Of a stretch of DNA of 64,000 nucleotides, positions 7,302-58,374 are shown piece after piece (the first letter of the stretch is position 1; each line of letters begins with the position of its first letter). Location: assembly GCA_951406725.2 (NCBI GenBank), contig OX597830.1, forward strand, positions 47,740,001 through 47,804,000, in the 5' to 3' direction. Origin of the DNA: Octopus vulgaris. Its lineage: Eukaryota. The notes under the pieces are model-generated. The model was not told the origin of the DNA. It made no database searches and saw only the letters and a program-made list of their open reading frames with translations. A program made the position numbers and the translations under genes.

Positions 7302-7835
7302 TGATAGAAAATTGAATAAATATGTACTTCATCTGGTGAGAGATAGATATTATTTATTTGAAGGTCACAATACTGGTATTAAAGCGCTACCAATAGTTTC
7401 ATATGTTTCAGGTGCAAATCACGTATCATAACGAACTAAAGAAATTGAATGATAGAAGAAACGCGAAAAATATCCTGAGGTTTAGATTATTCGAGTAATC
7501 TTAGAGTAATCCATGCGGTATAATTCCATAATAACGCGAAACTTGGTTGAATCATTAGAGTCACTCAACTTAACAAGCAATCACAGCAATCATATGGCAG
7601 TATGAATTTGCGGTGAAAAGCCAGCGTTAGGAGGTATATAATGTGCCACATATGGATTACTCTTCTCAGAAGATACCAACACCATCGAATAAACTATATA
7701 CTCAGGTTATATTTCGCGTATCTTCTATCATTCAATTTCTTTACTTCGTTACGATATGTGGTTTGCGCCTGAAGAATTTTGATCTCTCTCAACGTATGAA
7801 ACTATTAGTGGCGCTTTAATACATGTAACCTTTAA

Positions 7836-18991: not shown

Positions 18992-19064
<73 letters not shown>

Positions 19065-19068
<4 letters not shown>

Positions 19069-19900
19069 ACTTAGGCTGAAAGTCAACAAACAATGTTTAC
19101 TTTAGAAGCTTTGAGATGTTTTGAAAGATACAGACAAGGAAATAATTTTATTCTCCAACGCAGGTTAATGCTAATAATATAACATGAACAGGATAAACTA
19201 TACATATTTTTTAGAAAAATCTGTTGGTGGCCAGCCATGAGACTTGAACTCACATCCCTGTGATTAGGCATCAAGTGCTTTACCATTAAGCTAAACTGCC
19301 TAGTGACAAATTCTTCTGCAATTTTAGGATATATAGGTCTACTTTTATAAGACACTATTGTACGTTAAATTCAACTTATGCTGAAAGTCTTATAAAGGTA
19401 GATTTATATATCCTAAAACTGCAGAAGAATTTGTCACTGGGCAATGGTAAAGCACTTGATGCATAATCACAGGGATGTGAGTTCAAAACCCATGGCTGGC
19501 TGCCGACAGATTTTTCTACAAAATATGGATAGTTTATCCTGTTCAAGCTATATTATTAGCATTATCCTGTGTTTGAGAATAAAATTATTTCTTTATCTGT
19601 ATCTTTTAATGCATCTCAACGCTTCTAAAGCCAACTTTGTCTATTGACTTTCAACGTAAGTTGAATTTAATGTCTGATAGTGTCTTATAAAGCTAGATTT
19701 AGATATCCGAAAACTGCAGAAGAATTTGTCGCTGGGCAGTTTAGCTTAATGGTAAAGCACTTGATGCATAATCACAAGGATGTGTATTCAAGTCTCATGG
19801 CTGGCCACCAACAGATTTTTCTGCAAACTATGGATAGCTTATCCTATTCATGTTATATTATTAGCATTATCCTGTGTTTGAGAATAGAATTATTCCCTTA

Positions 19901-19905
<5 letters not shown>
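19065..19905. repeat. Three copies of a ~300 bp unit (first inverted, then two tandem), each containing a tRNA-like sequence
   Basis: 19065-19375 is the reverse complement of ~19385-19680, which is repeated again at ~19680-19905. Confidence 0.85.
19735..19810 (+). pseudogene. tRNA-Met(CAT)-like pseudogene or SINE head
   Basis: A-box TAGCTTAATGGTAAAGC, anticodon loop TGCATAA, T-arm GTG(A)GTTCAAGTCTCAT (best preserved in the 19225-19300 copy), ends GGCTGGCCACCA; stems imperfect. Confidence 0.55.
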
Positions 19906-27962: not shown

Positions 27963-29329
27963 CTGAAACAAGGAAAAAAAGATGATTATATCTAGAGAGT
28001 CAGGGATTTTTTTTATTAGAACAATGTAACAATTCCTTATGAAAGTTTCTTCTTCTGGTCACTAGCGCTGGACATGATGAGAGATTGTCTCAACTTGCTG
28101 TTTCCAATGGTAATAACACCCAAGCTAACAACTCTTAACAGAACATGCATATTGTCAAGGATTATATTAAAGATTATAGAATGTGTGCAATATAGAGAAG
28201 AAAGATATATATTACAGAAATGTACTTGCATAGCAAGTGACCTGATCAGAGATTGTGTGCTGGAATGAAAACAATTGCAGCGTGGAAGGTGTTTATAAGC
28301 CATTTAAAAACACACAAAAACTGTTAGATTCCCTCCAACATTTAAATTTAATTTCCCAAAATATTTTCGTTGTGACCTGTTCACTGACAAAATTCCATGC
28401 TGGTCAGTGAATAGGTCGCGGTCTCAAAGCGACGAAAATATAAATTTAAATGTTGGAGGGAATCTAACGGTTTTTGTGTGTTTTTAAATGGCTTATAAAC
28501 ACCTTCCATGCTGCAAAGATATATATATATTATAGAGAAATTTTATAAAGAGATAAGTGTATATTCTAACATAGAGAATGTCTTGTGGAGAATAAGGATG
28601 AGATAAGGAAGTGCATGTGATAGAAAACGAGAAGAATAGAGAGAATGTGTACTTTGCAATAACATATTATTATCATCATTTTAACATCCATTGCTTTATG
28701 ATTGCATGTGTCACACAGAATTCACTGAGGCAGATTTTCCATGGCTGCATGTCTACCCTGTCACCAACCCTTATCTGTTCCCAAGCAAAGTAATATTTCC
28801 ACCACCCCCTGGCTAGACATGTTTACACAGAAAATTGAAAATGAACAACACCACTTATGTGACAGTGGTGCTCATTTACAATAATCATACAATGTCAAGA
28901 CATGCACACACACACACACATACACATAATGGGCTTCTTTTAGTTTCCATCTACCATATCCTTACACGGCGATTTAGCTGGTCTAAGGCTATAGAAGAAG
29001 TCACTTTGAGATTTTGATGATGTGATTGTTTATTTTCGAATGACATTGTAGTGCAAGTGGGAGAAGCCAGATCTGCCTATGTTAAAGGGTCAGTAGAGAA
29101 AATGTGCATCAAAGACAACATGTACACCACAGAAAATGCTTGTATTATTGAGAATATAAATACAATAACACAAACATGTGTTATATCATAACACATGTGC
29201 ATATTAGCAAGAATATACAAGACATAAAGAATGCGAATTTTAAGGTAGAGAATGATTAAATAACAGAGAATATGTAAATTATAATGGAGAATGTGTATCC
29301 AAGTAAAAATACATGTTATTTCATTTATT

Positions 29330-32092: not shown

Positions 32093-35000
32093 GTGCCATC
32101 TGAGAGGGCAAACGATTGAAATGGGAAATTAAAAGAATCTGAAAAAGACAGAATGTGGAGAAGCGAAAACAACAATGAGACGATTAGGAGAAAAGGGTAA
32201 TTCTTTTCTCTCTTGAAAAGATCAAATTTTGTTACTTCAGCTTTGACCTTTAGCTGAAGCTTCAGGTCTTGATTGAAGCTTTCATGGCCTTTAACGAGAA
32301 GAATGGCTAAGAAGCAGGTCTAAGAAGATCTTCTATTGAGATACATGTCAGGTTTTCTGTGAGGATCTTAGCATCAATTGCATTGATTGCAACCACAAAA
32401 AACGCATACACTTATAACCATAAACGTACACACACACACACATATATATACAGTACATAATATACACATACAATGCATACATACACACATACATAAGCAC
32501 TTACATACATACACGCATACGCGTCCGTATGCATGAATGCATATACCTATATCGTTACTTTCCTTATATGTAATGATATTGTTGTTGTTATTGTTTAACA
32601 CAACATCAGCCCTCATCAAAAGCATTCAAGTTATGACAATAATATATCCTGACAACCCTATACAATGTGTTGTTGTTGTTTTAAGATGGTAGAGTGTAGC
32701 TTGAAGACCATCTGACTATTATTTCTAGCAAAGTTAGCAACCACGAAGAAGTTCCCTATTTTGTCTGGGTGCATCCATTACACTCTGCACTTTCTTCTTG
32801 CCCTTCCATTTGCCTCACATTCATACCCACTCCCACCTCCTTACACACACACACACACAAACACCTCACACTTCCAGTAACCTATGTCATTATCCTTCCC
32901 TCAACACAGACCCCCCCCCAAAAAAAAAAACCCTACAAACACCACTCTCCTCACATGCCTGTTCCCAGACACAAACACACCCCTACACCTACATTATCCC
33001 CCCTTTTTTTCAACTTTCTTCATAGAACTACATTCTCACCTGGTTCCTGATGCCTTGTCCATTTTGCTTTTTCCATTTTCCTTCATTGAGTATTGCCTTT
33101 TCTCATTCCCTCAATGTTTTTCTTTCTTCTGATGAAGGACTAATGTCCAAAATGTTAAGACTCTTTCTCTTCCCATTAAAGCATTCAGCTAAAACTGGAT
33201 TTATTAAACCATGTCAATTATGTGTTGACTTTTATACTGTTCATTAGATCTACCTGATATATACATATATGAATTATATATTTATATAAATAAGGATAAG
33301 ATCGTTAATTTAAAATAAAATAACGATTTTATCAAGTGGCCAGCATGGAAAAAATAACCTTCAAAGGAATAATTATTAAAATCATAAATTAGGGTATCTA
33401 CGAGATACCACCATGCTGAAAATAGCAGCCATGATCTGATTCTAAAACCACCAGTGTTTGCGATATGGACAATTAAGGTGGTTTTAGAGTCAGATCATGG
33501 CTGCTATTTTCAGCATGGTGGTATCTCGTAGATACCCTAATTTATAATTATATGAATTATATATATAAATTCTTTTATTTTTTTACTTGTTTCAGTCATT
33601 TGACTGGAGCCATGCTGGAGCATCGCCATAAAGAGTATTTTAGTGAAAGAAATTGACCCCAGGACTTATTCTTTGTAAGGGTAGTACTTACTCTATCAGT
33701 TTCTTTTGCTGAACTGCTATGTAACAGGGACATAAACACACTAACATCAGTTGTCAAATGATTGTAGGGGGACAAACACATACACAAAGATACATCATCA
33801 TCATCATCGTCGTCGTTTAACGTCCATTTTCCATGCTAGCATGGGTTGGATGGTTCAACCGGAGTCTGGGAAGCCAGGAGGCAGCACCAGGCTCCAGTCT
33901 GATCTGGCAGTGTTTCTACAGCTGGATGCCCTTCCTCACGTCAACCACTCAGTGAGTGTAGTGGATGCTTTTTATGTGTCACTGGCACAAGGGCCAGATG
34001 AGGCTGGCAAACGGCCAGGCTTCTTTCAGTTTCCATCTATCAGATCCACTCACAAAGCTTTGGTCAACCCAAAGCTATAGTAGAAGACACTTGCCCAAGA
34101 TGTCAGTCTGAGGGACTGAACCTGGAGACATGTGACTGGAAAGCAAGCTTCTTATCACACAGCCATGCCTATACACACACACACGCGCATGTGAGCACAC
34201 ACATCTACCGTTTTTTTTCTGTTTTAAGATGGTGTGCTATGATTTAAAATGAGTTGGGGTTACTTTATTCACCAGGCTGAGCAACATAGTGAGGGCTCCC
34301 TTCTTGGCTAATTGCATTATGCTTTAATGAGGTCATCTTCAGAGGAAACTCTGCAAATGGTCAAGTCAATAAGGTACAGAATCATGCATGGAAAGAGACG
34401 GCATATAATATTCTTTGTCTTGCATTGTGCTGGATCCCAGTGCTAATAAACCAATTTCTCAACTGCCCAAAGCTATCAACTCTGGTGTCACAGGATTCAA
34501 TTTTGTCCTTCTTCCCGTATATCAGTGTCTTATATTTTGCCATCATCACCAGCCAATGCTCACTTCTACACAATGATTCCCCTTTTCAATCTTTCCCCAA
34601 TATTTTGGATCTAAGCATCATCTACATACAACCTCTATGCTTCATGGTAAATCTGATTCCATGAAAAAAAAGACCTTAAAAAATATCCTCCAATGAAGTC
34701 ATGCTAACCATGTCTTTGTAAACAGAGCAGAGGCCCAATGCCTGTACATATCAAGAAAACATCATCACACCCATGTCACCACAGGAACCCTCAACATTGT
34801 AACAAATGCTAAGCCTCCACCATTACCAACAACATCTGGTGAATACAAATCTTCAAAAGCACTGAAACTGCATCAGAGAAAGTTCCACGCTAAATACTTC
34901 ATCCTCACAAACAACCAGAAATTCTTGACAAACTTCAAGTGGGACCTGCATTGAAGTATTATTCAGGCATTTGGAAAGGTGTTGCAATTCCGCACACACA

Positions 35001-37705: not shown

Positions 37706-37843
37706 CTCAAATACTCGTTTCTCCCAATGAGTAAAAGCTGTCCCATCAATGAGACCATCAGCCAAAGTTTTGCCATTCATTAGTTGGTCCTCAAGTTCAG
37801 CACCTTCTAATGTTGAACAATTGAAATGACGACGAACCTCTTC
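37706..37843 (-). CDS. LMLN: LMLN coding exon (third zinc-ligand His)
   Basis: EEVRRHFNCSTLEGAELEDQLMNGKTLADGLIDGTAFTHWEKRVFE; tttgcag/gtatg; phase 0-0. Confidence 0.97.
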
Positions 37844-47990: not shown

Positions 47991-49021
47991 ATATACATAT
48001 ATATAATATGTATGTATACATATATATATATATAAGTATGTATGTCAAAATGTGACCGCGTGTGTACCGTTGGCGATTTTTTTCCTCTGTCTTCCCTTCT
48101 CTGGATCTTTCCTTCTCCTATGTTTCCGACGAAGAGCTCTGCTCGAAACGTTAAAACCCTCCTTCTTTCCTGAGCGTCCAATAATACTATATTTGTTCCA
48201 CATCCTCGCGTTATTGTGTTTTTTTTGTGCTTTCATGTTTGGATTAACTTTCAGTTTATCATACCTCGATACAATAAACCTTCCATCTCAATAAACAACT
48301 AGTGTCCCTGAAAGTTGTTTTTTTTATATTTACTATAGATTGCTTGAAGGTAACTTTTTTCCTGCATCTCGATCCTTGAACGGTCAATGCCAGTCAGCAC
48401 CCCCCTCCCACACCCGACTGGTCGATGCCAGTCCCTCTCCGACTGGCTTCTGTGCCAATGGCATGTAAAAAGCGCCATCAATGCCAGTGTCACCTGAGTG
48501 GCTCCCATGCAGGTGGCATGTAAAAAGCACCCACTACACTCTCGGAGTGGTTGGCATTAGGAAGGACATCCAGCTGTAGAAACTTTGCCAGATCAAGATT
48601 GGAGCCTGGTGCAGCCTACTGGCTTGCCAGTCTCCATCTAACCCATGCTAGCATGAAAAGCGGACATTAAACAATGATGATATATATATATAGTTGTATT
48701 TTGGGATGATCATTGCTTTTTTGCCAAATAAACACCCCCTATATATTTGCTTATCACTCGTTTACTACTGTTCTAATTAAAATAAGAACAGTAATAAACG
48801 AGAGAAGAACAAATATATAGTGTGTATTTATTTGGCAAAAAAATAAAAAGCCAAAAGAAAATAACCATCTTGAAATACAACAATATCTGTTTCAACACAT
48901 GATTCCATATCAGGAATCTTGCAACACAAATTCATAAACGTAAATATATAAGAAAATTCCTCATTAAAGATTATTAGAAAATTCCTCATTAAAGATTTAG
49001 GACGAATGTTGCTGTATACAT

Positions 49022-50151: not shown

Positions 50152-52033
50152 GCTTATTTTCCAACTACATGGTTCCAGGTTCAACTATAGCCTTGGGTTG
50201 ACCAAAGCCTTGTGAGTAGATTTGGTAGATGGAAACTGAAAGAAGCCCATCATACATGTGTGTGTGTGTGTGTGTGTGTGATTGTGTTTGTCCCCCGCCA
50301 CCGCTTAATAACCAGTGTTGGCATTTTTACATTCCAGTAACCTAGCTGTCTGGCAAAAGAGACCAATAAAATAGGCATCAGGTTTAAGAGAAGTACTAGT
50401 GTGGTGGTGGTAGGGTGGTAGTGTTGGTGGGGTGGGCATTCTATTCAACTAAAAATTCTTCAAGATGGTGCCCCAGCATGGCCACAGCCTAATGACTGAC
50501 ACAAATAAAAGAGAAAAGATACGTGCGTATGTGTGTGTGTGTGTAGGTGAGTGTTTATACAAACATATAAATTTATTCAACTATAAATACACACACACAC
50601 ATGCATATACATGCAGTTCTATAAAACCACACATATTCCAACAAACACTCCTCCCCTCCCCTTACCCTCCCTTCTTCCTCCTCCTCCCTCCTCCAACTTC
50701 TTAGATTCCCTTTAATTATTCATTTGCTTTCCTAATATGCCCACTCCAACAACCTCCTACCGCCCCCGCCGCCAGCCAATCCTTTCACCAGCAGAGTAGA
50801 TAATGGCTTTTATCCAGAAATTCAGGAATTGGATATCAAGTAGCTCCAATCTAATCAGATATACTCTGCTGGTGTGACATCACTGAAAATTAATTCAATT
50901 AGGAATTAGAAAAAAAAAAACAAAAAACAAAAAAAAAAACAACATACAAACAAGATAATGTAGACTAATTCTATTAGATTGGAGTGAGGATGGGCGGGTG
51001 GTGGGTGTGAAAGATAAAGTAAAACCAACAACAACAAAAAAATGCCATTTCTTTCTTTCCTTTTCTCTCTCAATTTTTTTTTTTTTTTTTTTTGCATTTT
51101 CAGGAAGTTTTCTAGTGTTATATTTGAAAATATAGGAAGAATTTATATTTTTGCAGAGTGGGAGGATGCAGGGCAGTTTTGATTGATCTGATAAAAACAA
51201 ATCATTGTCATCGATGTTACTACAGTAGGAGTTTTATACACGGTCACTCGATCTGCCTGAAATAGCAGCCAAATTTCCTCCAAATTACACCATACAATTT
51301 TGGTTTTGAAACTATATCTGGGAGGTGCAGGCATGGCTGTGTGGTAAGAAGCTTGCTTTCCAACCACATGGTTCTGGGTTCAGTTCCATTGTATGGAACC
51401 TTGGGCAAGTGTTTTCTACTACAGCCTCGGGCCGACCAAAACCTGAGTGGGTTTGGTAGACGAAAACCGAAAGAAGCCTGTCATATATGTATATATATTT
51501 ATATATATATATATGTGTGTATATATATGCATATATACGAGGGTGAATCAAAAAGTAATGCCATTTTGTTTAGGACAGGTATAATTACCAACACAGGAAC
51601 ATGAATCATACATCAAAATGAAGCTTATTATGAGTTTCTTGTTTTTCCTTTTGGCAAGAAATCAACCAGAATGACACCTTGAGCATCCCAAACCACAGTC
51701 ACCATGATTTTTCCAGCTGAATTTTGTGTTTTGAACTTTTTCGGTGGTGCCATTCCATTGTCTGCCTCTTTGATTCCAGTTCATAATGATGAACCCATGT
51801 TTCATCACTTGTTATGAGCCTTTGAAAGAAGGTGTAGTCTCTTTGACTTTGTAGTGAAGAAGTGGCTCAAAGAACAGTCAACAGAATTTTACAGGGCAGG
51901 GATACATGCTCTCATTCGAAGGTGGAACATTGTTATTGATAGAAACAGTGACTGTTGAGAAGTAGGGAGGTGATCTACAGAAGACCAGCTTCCTTTTGAT
52001 GTATGATACATGTTCCTGAGTTGGTAAATAGAC

Positions 52034-52177
52034 AATACCAAACGAGTTCCCTATGGATACCGTATTTATTACAACGAGTGGCTTGTAAACGTATCTAACG
52101 AGCGAAAGCGAGTTAGATACGTTTACAAGCCACGAGTTGTAATAAATACGGTATCCATAGGGAATGAGTTTGGTATT
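52034..52177 (+). repeat. 144-nt hairpin: 70-position stem and GAAA loop
   Basis: Paired base by base; the only non-Watson-Crick positions are three tandem G.A/A.G pairs and one G-T. Confidence 0.97.
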
Positions 52178-52490
52178 TTATTTATTACACACGAATAAAC
52201 GACCATATTTTATCAATCTAATAATTAAATTCTTCACATCGTGTTGAAGCGCGCATGAATACAGCTTGATTTCACGTCAGTGACGTCACAATGTGTAACT
52301 GTAAAAGATGTCATGCCGCAGGAAGATAGTCCGACTTTATAGTACTAAGTTTTCAGGTGAAATGACTGATAACTGATGACTGTTTAACATTTTGTTAACA
52401 TTCAAGTTCACGTTCAAGAAATACATAACACAGATTGAATCTTCAATAACTTTAATAATACTCAAACCTGTTTTCGAGTAGTAATGTCAG

Positions 52491-54089
52491 TCAGAGTAGA
52501 GCACAATAGTCCAGGAAAACGTAACAGTCCTCATTATCTGTGAGACGAGCTCGCTTTGCATCTGAACCAAAGAAGTTCACATTGATTGCTCCCCCATATA
52601 TTGGAGCCGAGAAAATGGAGTGCAATGAACCAAAGCAAGTGACAGCGTTCCGAGATTGACTCGACGTAACGTTGACGGTGGAGGGGAGTTCACTTGCACT
52701 CGATGCTGCTGCGTGTGACGGAAGTACAAGCAAACCAGGCTGGTCGTTGTTGCTACTAAGGATGTTACTGATGGCATGATGACGATCCATGGAAATATTG
52801 CTGTAACTATTGATGCTTTGCACATTACGATGTCCAGATATCTGCATGATTTCAGTTGGAGGAATGTTCTGGTCAGCGAGCTTCTGCACAAGGTATTTGC
52901 GTGCTGAATGGTTCGTGAATCTTCGATTGTCCAAACCAGCTGATTTAGCCATCCTTTTCATAATTGTACCTAGTTTGTTGACACCGACCGGTTGACGTTT
53001 AAACCAGGGATGAGAATGGGAGGCATCTTTGCAGTTGGTGGCCAAATAAAATGGTGAATCCGGCGATGAATAATCTGATGGTCTCAGATCAGCAAAACAC
53101 TTGTACAGGTTAACTGGACAACGCTCATCATTCGTCGCCCATGCTTTTGCGTAGATGTTACATGCATGGTCGAGATTATCACCTTGACAAGTTTTGGACT
53201 GTCGCTCCCTAAACTGAAGGAATTCCTTGCCTTATTTGTCAACATGCAAAGAAACGTCGCCCCATCGCATGTCGTTGTGAGGTTTGACACTCCGGATACC
53301 AAAGTGAACGGTGTTGTTCCACCATAGTGTGTTGAGGATGGGTTCAGGTGTGTTCAGACCGAGCTGGTCACATTCCCATAGCTTGTTGATATCATCGTCG
53401 GAGAGAGATTCCGTGCATCGAGGTAGGTTTCCCATTCCTTCACTTTTCAACAGCATTTGCTTTGTTTTTAGTACGTCATGTAGTTTCACGAATGCCCCGT
53501 CCGAGAATAGTGACGTCGAGTAGTGTTTTGACTTCAGATATCTTTCAATACTGGATAACATTCCCCTCAAAGATGAAGGTTCATAGTTGCTATCGTCTGG
53601 CTTTCGTAACGAGATAAAGAAAGTACACAGAATGTCACAAAGTTCGCTTTTGTCGATAGATTCAATTGGACGCGTGTCGCCATTTGTCGCCATGAAAGCA
53701 AACAATCGTTTAACATCATAATTTGTTTTCCGAAGAGTGTTTTTATTTTGATTACCTTGAACGAATTTATCTATTCCAGAATGATTATACCTCGGTTGAA
53801 ATTCAAGATCATTATGGCTATCATCAAAGAAATCGTCAGGAAGAAGATCATTGTACACCTCATCAGGGATGTTAAATGTAGGGTTCGATGACAATCTACT
53901 CGTCGATGACACTGTTTCAGGTACCTTTGTTAACCTGTATCCAGCAACATGTCGAACTTGGCCAGTATTGATCTTCACATTGAACATTCTGTATGTTCCA
54001 AGAGGTTGAACAACGGATAACACTCTTCCCCCATCTTTACCATCAATCTTAACAAAATCATTCACCTTGATATCGACAACAGTAGCCAT
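52491..54089 (-). pseudogene. Tyrosine recombinase (Crypton/DUF3504-like), 532 codons with one premature TAA at 53232-53234
   Basis: The two track ORFs are in one frame (VDK*GKEFLQFRERQSKT...CPVNLY...RP...PFYLAT); catalytic set FGIR, SKT, NHSAR, SGH, SINSY; N-part NKNTLRKT...YEPSSLRGMLSSIERYL; ATG in aacaagATGG context. Confidence 0.9.
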
Positions 54090-54377
54090 CTTGTTGATAG
54101 ATCTACCTGCACTGCAAGAGTATTGACGAGCAGACGATATATGTTGTGATTTTTTTGGCAACAAAAAATTGAATTACGACCAGAAATTTTTATATTTTAT
54201 GTGTATATGACTTTAAGTGATATCTGGTATAAAAAAGATAGTATATTTGTTTAATTACATGGCTACATTCTACCTGCTCGTGAAAGTTTAGTTGTAACTT
54301 ATGAATGACAAAAGTAGTGCTGTCACCGTGACCTCGGGTCATCACCATGGATTGACCAATCAGAAGCAGCGCTCGCA

Positions 54378-54399
54378 GTATCTGACATATGTCAGATAC
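54378..54399. repeat. Perfect 22-bp palindrome near the promoter-side end of the YR element
   Basis: gtatctgacat|atgtcagatac. Confidence 0.95.
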
Positions 54400-57079
54400 C
54401 AAAAATATCTCAAAGTGTTCTCACTCACATGTGTGTAATAATTAATTATACCTGTCCTTAACAAAATGGCATTACTTTTTGGCTCACCCATGTATATCTG
54501 TGTGTGTGTGTCTGTGTTTGTCCCTCCACCACTGCTTGGCAACCGATGTTGGTGTGTTTATGTCCCTGTAACTTAGCAGTTTGGCAAAAGAGACCAATAG
54601 AATAAGTATTAGGCTTACAAAGAATAAGTCCCGGGGTTGATTTGTTCAACTAAAGGCGGTGCTCCAGCATGGCTGCAGTCAAAATGACTGAAACAAGCAA
54701 AAGAATAAAAGAATAAATGTGGTCCCTGATGCAATAAAAAAAAACAAAATAAAAAGGGATGTCGACAGCAAGGCTCCCTGTCATCATGAGTCTGCTTTTA
54801 AGGGGTTTATTACAGAAACATGCAGGAAAATCAATTTTACATTGCAGAATATTATGTTGCATTGAGTTTTTTCAGGAATGTATTTCCTCCATAGTGTAGG
54901 GGATTCGAGAAGTTTCCTTGCTGACCATATGATTCTTGGTTCAGTCTCACTGTATGGCACCCTGGCTAAGTGTCTTCTGCTACAGTCCTGGGCCAACCAA
55001 AGCCTTGTGAGTGAATTTGGTAGATGGAAACTGAAAGAAGCCTGTTAAATGTGTGTGTGGCTGTGAGTCCGTAACACCATTTGCTAATTAGTGTCAGTGT
55101 GTTTAAGCCCTTGTAACTTAGCAGTTTGGCAAAAGAAACTAATAGAGTAAGTGCCAGGCTCAAAAAAATATGGACCGGGGTTGATTCATCTGACCAAGAA
55201 TTCTTCCAGATACATACATTCATGAATGCACACACACACGCATGCACACACACACACACGCACACGTGCGCACACACACATAGACACACACACACACACA
55301 CACAAACACATACACAGAAACAAACCCACACACACGCATACACACACATCTGCTATACAGGCACATAAAGAATCAGATATAAATCAATGCTTTATTCTGA
55401 AGCAAAGATACATAAAATATAACCCGCCACACACACTCAAATGTAAATACACAAACACATATGAATTACACAAAAATCAAAGACATAAATATAAGAACAA
55501 AATCACCCAAAATGTAATATGTGTCTACTCAGATATGGAAATACATAACCAGGTGTGTATGTACACACACACTCACACACTCTCTCACACACACACACAC
55601 ACACTACCATTCTGTATGTACAGAGTTATGGGTTCTCATTGCAGAGAATTACAAATATTTAATGAAGTCATTTGTTTTATTGGTTGAGATCATCACCAAC
55701 AGAAGCAGCTGTCTATACTGTCTGTAGTCTTGGCACCAATGCCATTATGGTCAGCACTATCCCCACCACCACCACCACCACCGCCACCACCATCACCATT
55801 ATCGTCATCCTTGGTTTTAGCATTGTATGTATCAAAGTGTCGTTGACATCAACCACTGACAGCATCACTACTGCAGTCGCCATTATTAGCTTGTCTTCTT
55901 CCATTCACGTACAATGTTGAATGTGGCGTAACATCAGGTGCCACGTGGCGTGAAATGTCTGAGTCAATGAGCCACGCTAATAAGACAGCACTTGTCTCAC
56001 CGTTGAAGAACATATTCAAGTCATAACAGTGTCAGCCTTAGAGTCTCATCTTCTAGAAGAGCAATTGGAGTGGAATTTAATGGGAATCTAATCATGCTAC
56101 ACACACACAGACACATCCACACACATATGCATACTGTATCGGCTGTACCAAATCTGTGAAGTATGATATGGATTCATATTCTATATCAGATACATGACAC
56201 ATATATCATCATCATTATCATCATCGTTTAACATCCGTTTTCCATGCTGGCATGGGTTGGACAGTTTAACCAGGGCTGGTAAGCTTAGGGGCTGCACCAG
56301 GTTCCAGTCTAATTTGGCATGGTTACTACAGCTGGATGCCCTTCCTAATGCCAACCACTCCGAGAGTGTAATGGGTGCTTTTTACGTGCCACCAGCACAG
56401 GGTCCATGATTTGATAAGTAATAAGGAACTCTGGGAAGAGCTGAACAGCAGAAAATCTTCAGAGAGAAACCTGTATGCTGGCTGTTTTAACCAGGTCATT
56501 CAAAGACAACAATTCCCTGAAGGATAAGTTATGTCTTTTGGAATTCATTTCCACCAGACTCTAGTCTGATTTGGGATGGTTTCTATAGCTGGATGCCCTT
56601 CATAACGTCAACCACTCTGAGAGTGTAATGAGTGCTTTTACATGCCAGCGGCACAGGCACCATTTGTGTGACACCAGTATCTGCCACGACTGTGATTTTA
56701 CTTGGCTTGATGGGTCTTCTTCTCAAGCACAACATAATGCCAAAGGTCTCAGTCATTGTCTCCATGCAGCCCAACACTCAAAAGGTGCTTTCCAAGTGCC
56801 ACTGGCACAGGTGCCAGTTACGTGATACCAGCATTATCCATGATTGGTTTTCACTTGGCTTGACGGCTCTTCTCAATCACAGTATCTCTAGTCAAATAAA
56901 TTAACCTCAGTACTCAAGCATACGTTTTATTGATCTTTGAAGAATGAAAGTCCTAGGATGATGAAAGGCATAGCTGACCATGGCAGGATTTGAACTTGGA
57001 ACACTAGACATAGCAAAATACAGCAAAGACTTTCCCCTTCTTCACTTATGCTTCTACCAATTAAAGGAAGTTTACTCAC

Positions 57080-57918: not shown

Positions 57919-58374
57919 ATAATGAACTTGTCTAGGTATAGCAATACTAACAGCCAGTTGTTAAAAGTCAAAATACATAGGCTTTAGAATAAAGTGATAG
58001 GAAAGTAAAGAGTGTAATATAAATTATTGAATGTCAAAGGAACAGGAAGGGAATCAACTTCTTTAGCTCACAGCTGTTTCTGCTATCAGAAGCAGTGCAC
58101 TCAGAGCTGAGTAGTTGAGCAACATCTTGCTGATTGCACTGCTTCTTATAGCCGAAACAGCTGTAACCTAATGAAGTGCCATTTATTTGAAATAATTAGT
58201 AATGCACAGGTTAGTGCCATGCTACGAGACGGGTCAACTTAGACACCAAGACATTCTGGAGGACCCAAAATTCCATGCAGAATGCAACAAGATTTAGGTA
58301 GTAAGGTTGTTTGAATGCGTACATCACATGTTTACATGATATGCTATGTTGAATTGCATTCCAGAAAACATGGC

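Follow-up and report, generated by a model that had tools for sequence, protein, structure and literature searches.

Open question and locus

How animal Cryptons move is an open question. Kojima and Jurka (2011, PMC3212892) described these elements as being without terminal repeats and reported no mechanism in the available parts of their paper (the papers cited here by PMC number were available in part, and what is said of them applies to those parts). A 64,000-nucleotide stretch of the Octopus vulgaris contig OX597830.1 (positions 47,740,001 to 47,804,000; the whole stretch is referred to as the window) contains, at window positions 52028-54441, minus strand, a 2,414-bp CryptonA-type tyrosine-recombinase element inside an intron of LMLN. 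The element is a dead copy of a young transposon family with several hundred copies and, judging from the copies of this family, it is rather probable that the family recombinase would insert one DNA strand, in folded form, at a duplex target, in the manner of integron integrases acting on attC sites.

Element ends and terminal hairpin

A search of the octopus genome with a 22-base right-end motif gave 275 exact matches, against none for a control motif. From 110 loci collected six duplicates were removed, leaving 104 right ends, 90 of them with the left end too; 80 loci were drawn from the first 100 exact matches listed and the sample therefore leans to young copies. The 90 two-ended copies set both ends of the full-length element (52028 and 54441, minus strand), which upholds the left end of the initial annotation (52028..54445) but moves its right end from 54445 to 54441.

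The left end is followed by a hairpin with 66-nt arms (52034-52177, plus strand; inverted-repeat and folding analysis, z -17.8), whose non-coding strand carries G.A/A.G in three tandem blocks. Each of the three internal loops is a tandem G.A in the context Y-GA-R on that strand, and CGAG blocks have been found by nuclear magnetic resonance (NMR) to form sheared pairs (PMC10085684). The hairpin tip consists of the sequence GCGAAAGC (52102-52109, plus strand), a mini-hairpin specific to DNA, which melts at 76.5 C, against 39 C for its RNA counterpart (PMC13037366). When comparing the 90 two-ended copies, the base stem was kept in 88 and the tip with its mini-hairpin was lost or altered in 38, the length of the hairpin block ranging from 107 to 169 nt; the first G.A block was kept in all seven full-length copies. 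Arm-to-arm conversions were seen in both directions together with inverted loops (11 copies against 41), a pattern consistent with hairpin folding in vivo.

The inner arm extends into a region, 52172-52192 (plus strand), complementary to the junction that the right and left ends would form in a circle (inverted match and fold of the joined ends). When the joined element ends were folded the stem was lengthened and two bases were left unpaired, and a clean end-to-end junction of this kind exists in nature in the head-to-tail dimer L040/L285. The element-side spacer, situated at 52028-52034 (plus strand), places 7 nt opposite 5 nt of the inner arm and is asymmetric when folded, according to copy comparison and folding. 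At the other end, the right-end copies show that positions 54431-54441 (plus strand) together with the flank re-form a target-like double-stranded site. A 15-nt inverted match joins the end to an internal site and not end to end; terminal direct or inverted repeats and target duplication are absent, as in CryptonA. The imperfect palindrome, with its uneven spacer and variable tip, resembles attC in forming a putative recombinase site.

Target site and strand footprint

The target profile was based on 72 copies, after removal of 16 microsatellite targets and two dimer rows, and revealed the target RTAH, six free bases, DTAY, whose mirror symmetry is greatest when the spacer is taken as 6 bp (r 0.91, against 0.56 for the second-best length). 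No target duplication was detected in these 72 copies, where the lengths match those of shuffled pairs. Four empty sites outside microsatellites (L035, L048, L058 and L097) join gaplessly, and for two more, situated in diverged repeats, the junction is uncertain by a single base. The crossover falls on the plus strand, at the left spacer edge; this strand carries G.A in the hairpin, and by established chemistry it is the one that a tyrosine recombinase would exchange at that edge.

An exchange of both strands over a mismatched spacer should give about half of the copies a right end followed by the element spacer and a left end with target bases. The element spacer was found after the right end in two of 275 cases, one being the dimer and the other the copy L286, so that the footprint of the other strand amounts to at most one in 274 right ends (chance expectation 0.12). 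For the left side, 217 matches to an inner left-end motif gave 30 loci, two of which were inner arms and 28 outer ends; all 28 outer ends carry the element spacer or a one-base variant of it and none the other-strand footprint. These footprints fit a one-strand exchange, and repair bias could give the same counts. The 4-6 bp direct repeat common to donor and target, as in CryptonF and the Goodwin model, was present at one of 275 right ends (L286).

Nine copies (L065, L066, L071, L072, L074, L075, L099, L100 and L106) share a single insertion point in one repeat, where the AT tail of that repeat begins; this would reflect either an insertion hotspot or co-mobilisation.

Recombinase

The recombinase frame, 54089..52491 on the minus strand, is 532 codons long and interrupted by one TAA (53232-53234), as originally described. 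It is the only frame in the element; reverse transcriptase, a trait of DIRS elements, was not found. The catalytic residues R266, K299, H394, R397, H420 and Y429 are all retained, as had been claimed, among them the R-H-R-Y set of CryptonA, and the corresponding columns show conservation in 41-45 of the 45 homologues aligned. Pfam identified DUF3504 in both halves of the frame, QRICH1 also in the N-terminal half and Phage_integrase in the C-terminal half; Pfam and the fold agree on one tyrosine-recombinase gene of DUF3504 type, again as in CryptonA.

A structure model was built from the sibling protein P0068, with a mean predicted local distance difference test score (pLDDT) of 79.7. Pfam and this model together divide the frame (52491..54089, minus strand) into a Tudor/KOW-like barrel (residues 3-59), a core-binding and DUF3504 catalytic domain (residues 105-450) and a low-confidence tail. 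No C-terminal accessory domain (GCR1_C, peptidase) was found, Pfam being silent beyond residue 434 and the pLDDT of the tail mostly below 50. The model was matched by Cre (Z 16.6, root-mean-square deviation (rmsd) 4.1, 289 aligned), archaeal Xer (Z 16.3) and QRICH1 (Z 16.1), and residues 3-59 matched Tudor/KOW barrels with Z 8.6 (rmsd 1.7, 55 aligned); an Atlas search with the N-terminus gave only leads below threshold.

The stop at 53232-53234 (minus strand, codon 286) is premature and private to the window copy, the position being a glutamate codon in six of six other near-full-length copies. The window copy departs at three more conserved columns (166, 310 and 314), which is not the case in the sibling L006. 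The family frame is likely to be 522 codons long, because five of six siblings have a stop at codon 523. In collapsed contigs from sequencing runs, four of four runs show the family state at the stop codon, a count that describes the family and not the locus itself, and none of the joints listed spanned the complete element. In four runs that are RNA by guess only, stretches of the element are represented with low coverage, often in the form of deletion derivatives.

Proposed mechanism and alternatives

Insertion of one folded strand would begin with a fold of the non-coding strand, formed by cruciform extrusion or in the course of replication, in which the left junction would pair with the inner arm; the recombinase site formed in this way would have a spacer of uneven length, 7/5 nt. 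The enzyme would recombine this folded site with the double-stranded right junction and release a one-strand circle, where pairing of the joined ends with the inner arm would restore the folded site. The circle would then exchange one strand with an RTAH-N6-DTAY site in the genome, and host replication would resolve this exchange, giving insertion with neither duplication nor spacer homology; as the target is regenerated at the right end, head-to-tail dimers would be possible. The folded partner would be the left or the circle junction throughout, and the duplex partner the right junction or the genomic target.

The attC site of integrons is recombined as one folded strand, in which the central spacer stays unpaired and the tip is variable, by one-strand exchange and with the junction resolved by replication (Bouvier 2009, PMC2727003). 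The octopus family would share with attC x attI recombination a folded one-strand site, an uneven spacer, a variable tip, the exchange of one strand and a target regenerated for stacking. It differs from integrons in that the recombinase and both sites belong to the element itself and the genomic targets are degenerate; furthermore, the strand is marked by G.A blocks instead of the extrahelical G and T of attC, and the protein has no special likeness to the IntI fold.

Several points weigh against this mechanism. The integron integrase (2a3v) gave Z 14.4 (rmsd 4.0, 254 aligned) with the P0068 model, which is thus no nearer to it than to Cre or Xer, and folding energy favours the plus strand by only 1.8-3.1 kcal/mol. 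When copies are taken as they are, with kinship uncorrected, plain pairs have replaced G.A block 1 in 12 of the 80 copies scored and block 2 in 21 of 45, and G.A conversions of this kind occur at any quasi-palindrome. The copies were sampled via exact end motifs, and the same window holds further long hairpins. In the copy L286 both ends carry the same six bases, as would be expected under the older direct-repeat model, and the insertion site in the window, inside a repeat of a host transposon, is four bases longer than the common form of that repeat (755 against 1). In a distant DUF3504 family from metagenomes, whose ends are undefined, a hairpin was found in one of five regions folded, with no common terminal hairpin. 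Circle, single strand and activity are all unobserved, and the steps of transfer are inferred.

It is possible, but in our view unlikely, that the element moves as a double-stranded circle and that both strands are recombined over a mismatched spacer followed by repair biased to one strand, the hairpin being an array for recombinase binding or a by-product. A duplex circle with a mismatched spacer is the arrangement of Tn916/Tn1549-like elements. The classic shape of the target, two arms with a 6-bp spacer, and the canonical two-domain fold of the recombinase both speak for such a circle, which is also the published model (PMC3212892). Repair would however have to favour one strand almost without exception, the other-strand footprint being seen at no more than 1 of 274 right ends and none of 28 left ends, and such a circle leaves both the junction complement and the restriction of the G.A motifs to one strand unexplained; moreover, the spacers are 7 nt at the junction and 5 nt at the inner site, neither of them 6.

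Rather more doubtful still is that recombination takes place on duplex sites and that the hairpin serves as a priming origin, converting or copying an excised single strand or driving hairpin-primed replication. In favour of an origin, GCGAAAGC marks the priming origin of phage G4 (PMC13037366) and inverted-loop isomers occur (11 copies against 41). An origin, however, requires no complement to the joined ends, and in 38 of 90 copies the tip with its mini-hairpin is missing or changed, the base stem persisting.

Age and origin of the family

The initial annotation proposed a Crypton-like element with siblings elsewhere in the genome, and hundreds of dispersed copies with sharp ends and a DUF3504 recombinase confirm it as Crypton-type and multi-copy. 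When the octopus genome was searched at the DNA level and 40 of 374 candidates were scored, at least seven near-full-length copies and many deletion derivatives were found. Among the two-ended copies 83 of 90 are shorter than 2 kb, the plentiful non-autonomous derivatives being a trait of CryptonA, and 82 of these 83 deletion derivatives keep at least 204 bases of the left end.

The seven near-full-length copies are 1.15-3.4% apart and private divergence is ~0.5-1.7% per copy, in agreement with the claim of a young element, although present-day activity does not follow; no identical pair of copies was found, the best non-autonomous pair being 99.2% identical. The suggestion that intact siblings may exist is borne out by open frames in L006 (522 aa), with three departures at strongly conserved columns but none catalytic, and in L004 (518 aa), with an in-frame 12-bp deletion adjoining the tyrosine; the other four near-full-length siblings contain stops or a frameshift. 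Private changes are neutral (86 nonsynonymous, 22 synonymous, pN/pS 1.11) and the shared changes, in small counts, give a ratio of 0.39 (11 nonsynonymous, 8 synonymous), a pattern that in these sequences indicates a recent burst of copies with decay after insertion. That the frame is instead a domesticated DUF3504 gene, or an alternative LMLN exon, under host selection is highly improbable even though DUF3504 domestication is frequent (PMC3212892) and other single DUF3504 frames are present in the octopus genome, given the hundreds of dispersed, sharp-ended copies, the neutral private changes, the stop in the middle of the domain and the nesting of the element in another transposon; neither the single copy nor the purifying selection that the initial annotation named as signs of a domesticated gene was found.

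Seven other long open DUF3504-like frames (L120, L122, L124 and L126-L129; 397-599 aa) lie far from the octopus Crypton family, with catalytic motifs that by eye are mostly altered, and are likely domesticated; no comparable hairpin was found within the 3.2-3.5 kb examined around them. A truncated insertion is present five times with identical flanks on octopus contig C17 (L016-L020, 67-80 Mb) and represents a segmental duplication family. L054 has an isolated inverted 55-base right end nearby, and L110 is a rearranged copy with outward-facing right ends on both sides.

The protein cluster contains ten O. vulgaris entries and one from O. sinensis, labelled ZMYM2-like, hypothetical or uncharacterized, and the nearest non-octopus proteins are 55-61% identical. 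Homology searches of the octopus genome turned up no older or intermediate-age related family, and this is the sole hint of the horizontal acquisition that was initially considered, for which no positive evidence was found. Viral contigs contained no relative, and among 147 loci with the hairpin-tip motif in prokaryote and viral collections none had a DUF3504 relative or a long stem. A multi-copy DUF3504 family was seen in metagenome contigs (L130-L137, eight loci, 29-33% identity), with three copies on one 86-kb contig.

Genomic context

The location in an LMLN intron was confirmed, the element lying in sense orientation between the upstream exon at 57177-57079 and the downstream exon at 40447-40328, both on the minus strand and 100% and 97.5% identical, respectively, to the Octopus sinensis protein P0093 (tblastn). 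A Peptidase_M8 profile search of the octopus genome gave zero matches, and LMLN was instead mapped by its homologue. A further LMLN exon at 37706-37843 is 96% identical to P0094 but has no match of at least 70% identity in the O. sinensis model P0093, and contains extra residues in frame near the motif ELEDQ; alternative splicing or a difference between models could possibly account for this.

The element differs from its surroundings in base composition, as first noted, with a CpG observed/expected ratio of 0.99 compared to 0.46 in the rest of the window and 0.33 in the 5-kb flanks, and a ratio of 0.95-1.05 is reached by two of 24 equal-sized tiles elsewhere in the window. It is also free of microsatellites, Tandem Repeats Finder detecting zero tandem arrays inside it.

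Inverted-repeat pairs place the Crypton within the right repeat of a miniature inverted-repeat transposable element (MITE) at 51538-54492, with TA-flanked terminal inverted repeats, which we take to be mariner-like. This MITE family has at least 755 exact repeat-motif matches in the octopus genome. The prediction that the family carries the four extra bases of the window site failed (1 against 755), and a Crypton-free MITE (L111) has the same longer repeat; either a rare target variant was chosen, as at L111, or the bases were added by the insertion.

Other foldback structures are present in the window. A near-perfect hairpin at 33369-33560 (84-nt arms, z -22.5), with no G.A blocks, is likely an unrelated foldback element, imperfect hairpins occur at 48717-48842 (z -13.4) and 58057-58177 (z -7.6), and long inverted-repeat pairs at 19061-19905, 28275-28516 and 7407-7773 are probably MITEs.

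Relation to known elements

Eulor5/6 and the salmon element Crypton-N1_SSa fold into hairpins. They are non-autonomous Crypton relatives (PMC5753468), and the words "hairpin" and "palindrom" are absent from the passages of that paper examined.

The octopus element has the CryptonA features examined, an assignment made by features and not by a tree with named CryptonA elements. Animal CryptonA elements likewise have one DUF3504-type recombinase gene with R-H-R-Y, a length of ~2 kb, no C-terminal domain and plentiful non-autonomous derivatives, and are known from the mollusc Lottia (PMC3212892). The terminal hairpin, the junction complement, the symmetric target and the N-terminal Tudor/KOW-like barrel set the octopus family apart from published CryptonA. 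With CryptonF and the Goodwin circle model, the direct-repeat model based on CryptonF and Starships, it shares a recombinase-only content, the lack of a true target duplication and a rising copy number (PMC9977147, PMC13465315), but CryptonF needs a 5-bp match between donor and target and the octopus spacer is not common with the target (1/275 right ends). An internal stretch complementary to the outer ends recalls the internal complementary region of DIRS elements (PMC13465315), whereas the octopus element has neither reverse transcriptase nor terminal inverted repeats and is DNA-only.

Implications

The initial annotation left the structure of the ends undescribed, the hairpin and the junction complement included. 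No paper on Crypton hairpins or single-strand recombination was found in a literature search whose coverage stopped short of Repbase Reports, Dfam notes, subscription journals and figures, and CryptonF is the only active Crypton described in the literature examined. The contribution of this locus is a family that is young and includes open recombinase frames, together with a target that has been measured and a strand count across the genome. With regard to the movement of animal Cryptons, the octopus family offers substrates that are exactly defined, a target described in numbers and a prediction of the strand, and the question therefore becomes testable with oligonucleotides and one protein.

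The chances are about even that animal CryptonA elements in general would be self-contained eukaryotic integron cassettes, whose recombinase excises one folded strand, marked by sheared G.A, and pastes it into short, degenerate, non-homologous sites; with its exact ends, measured target and open-frame siblings the octopus family is a ready system for this reading. If true, it would mean folded-single-strand site-specific recombination in an animal nucleus, and would hint at what the ancestors of ZMYM, QRICH1 and KCTD1 bound.

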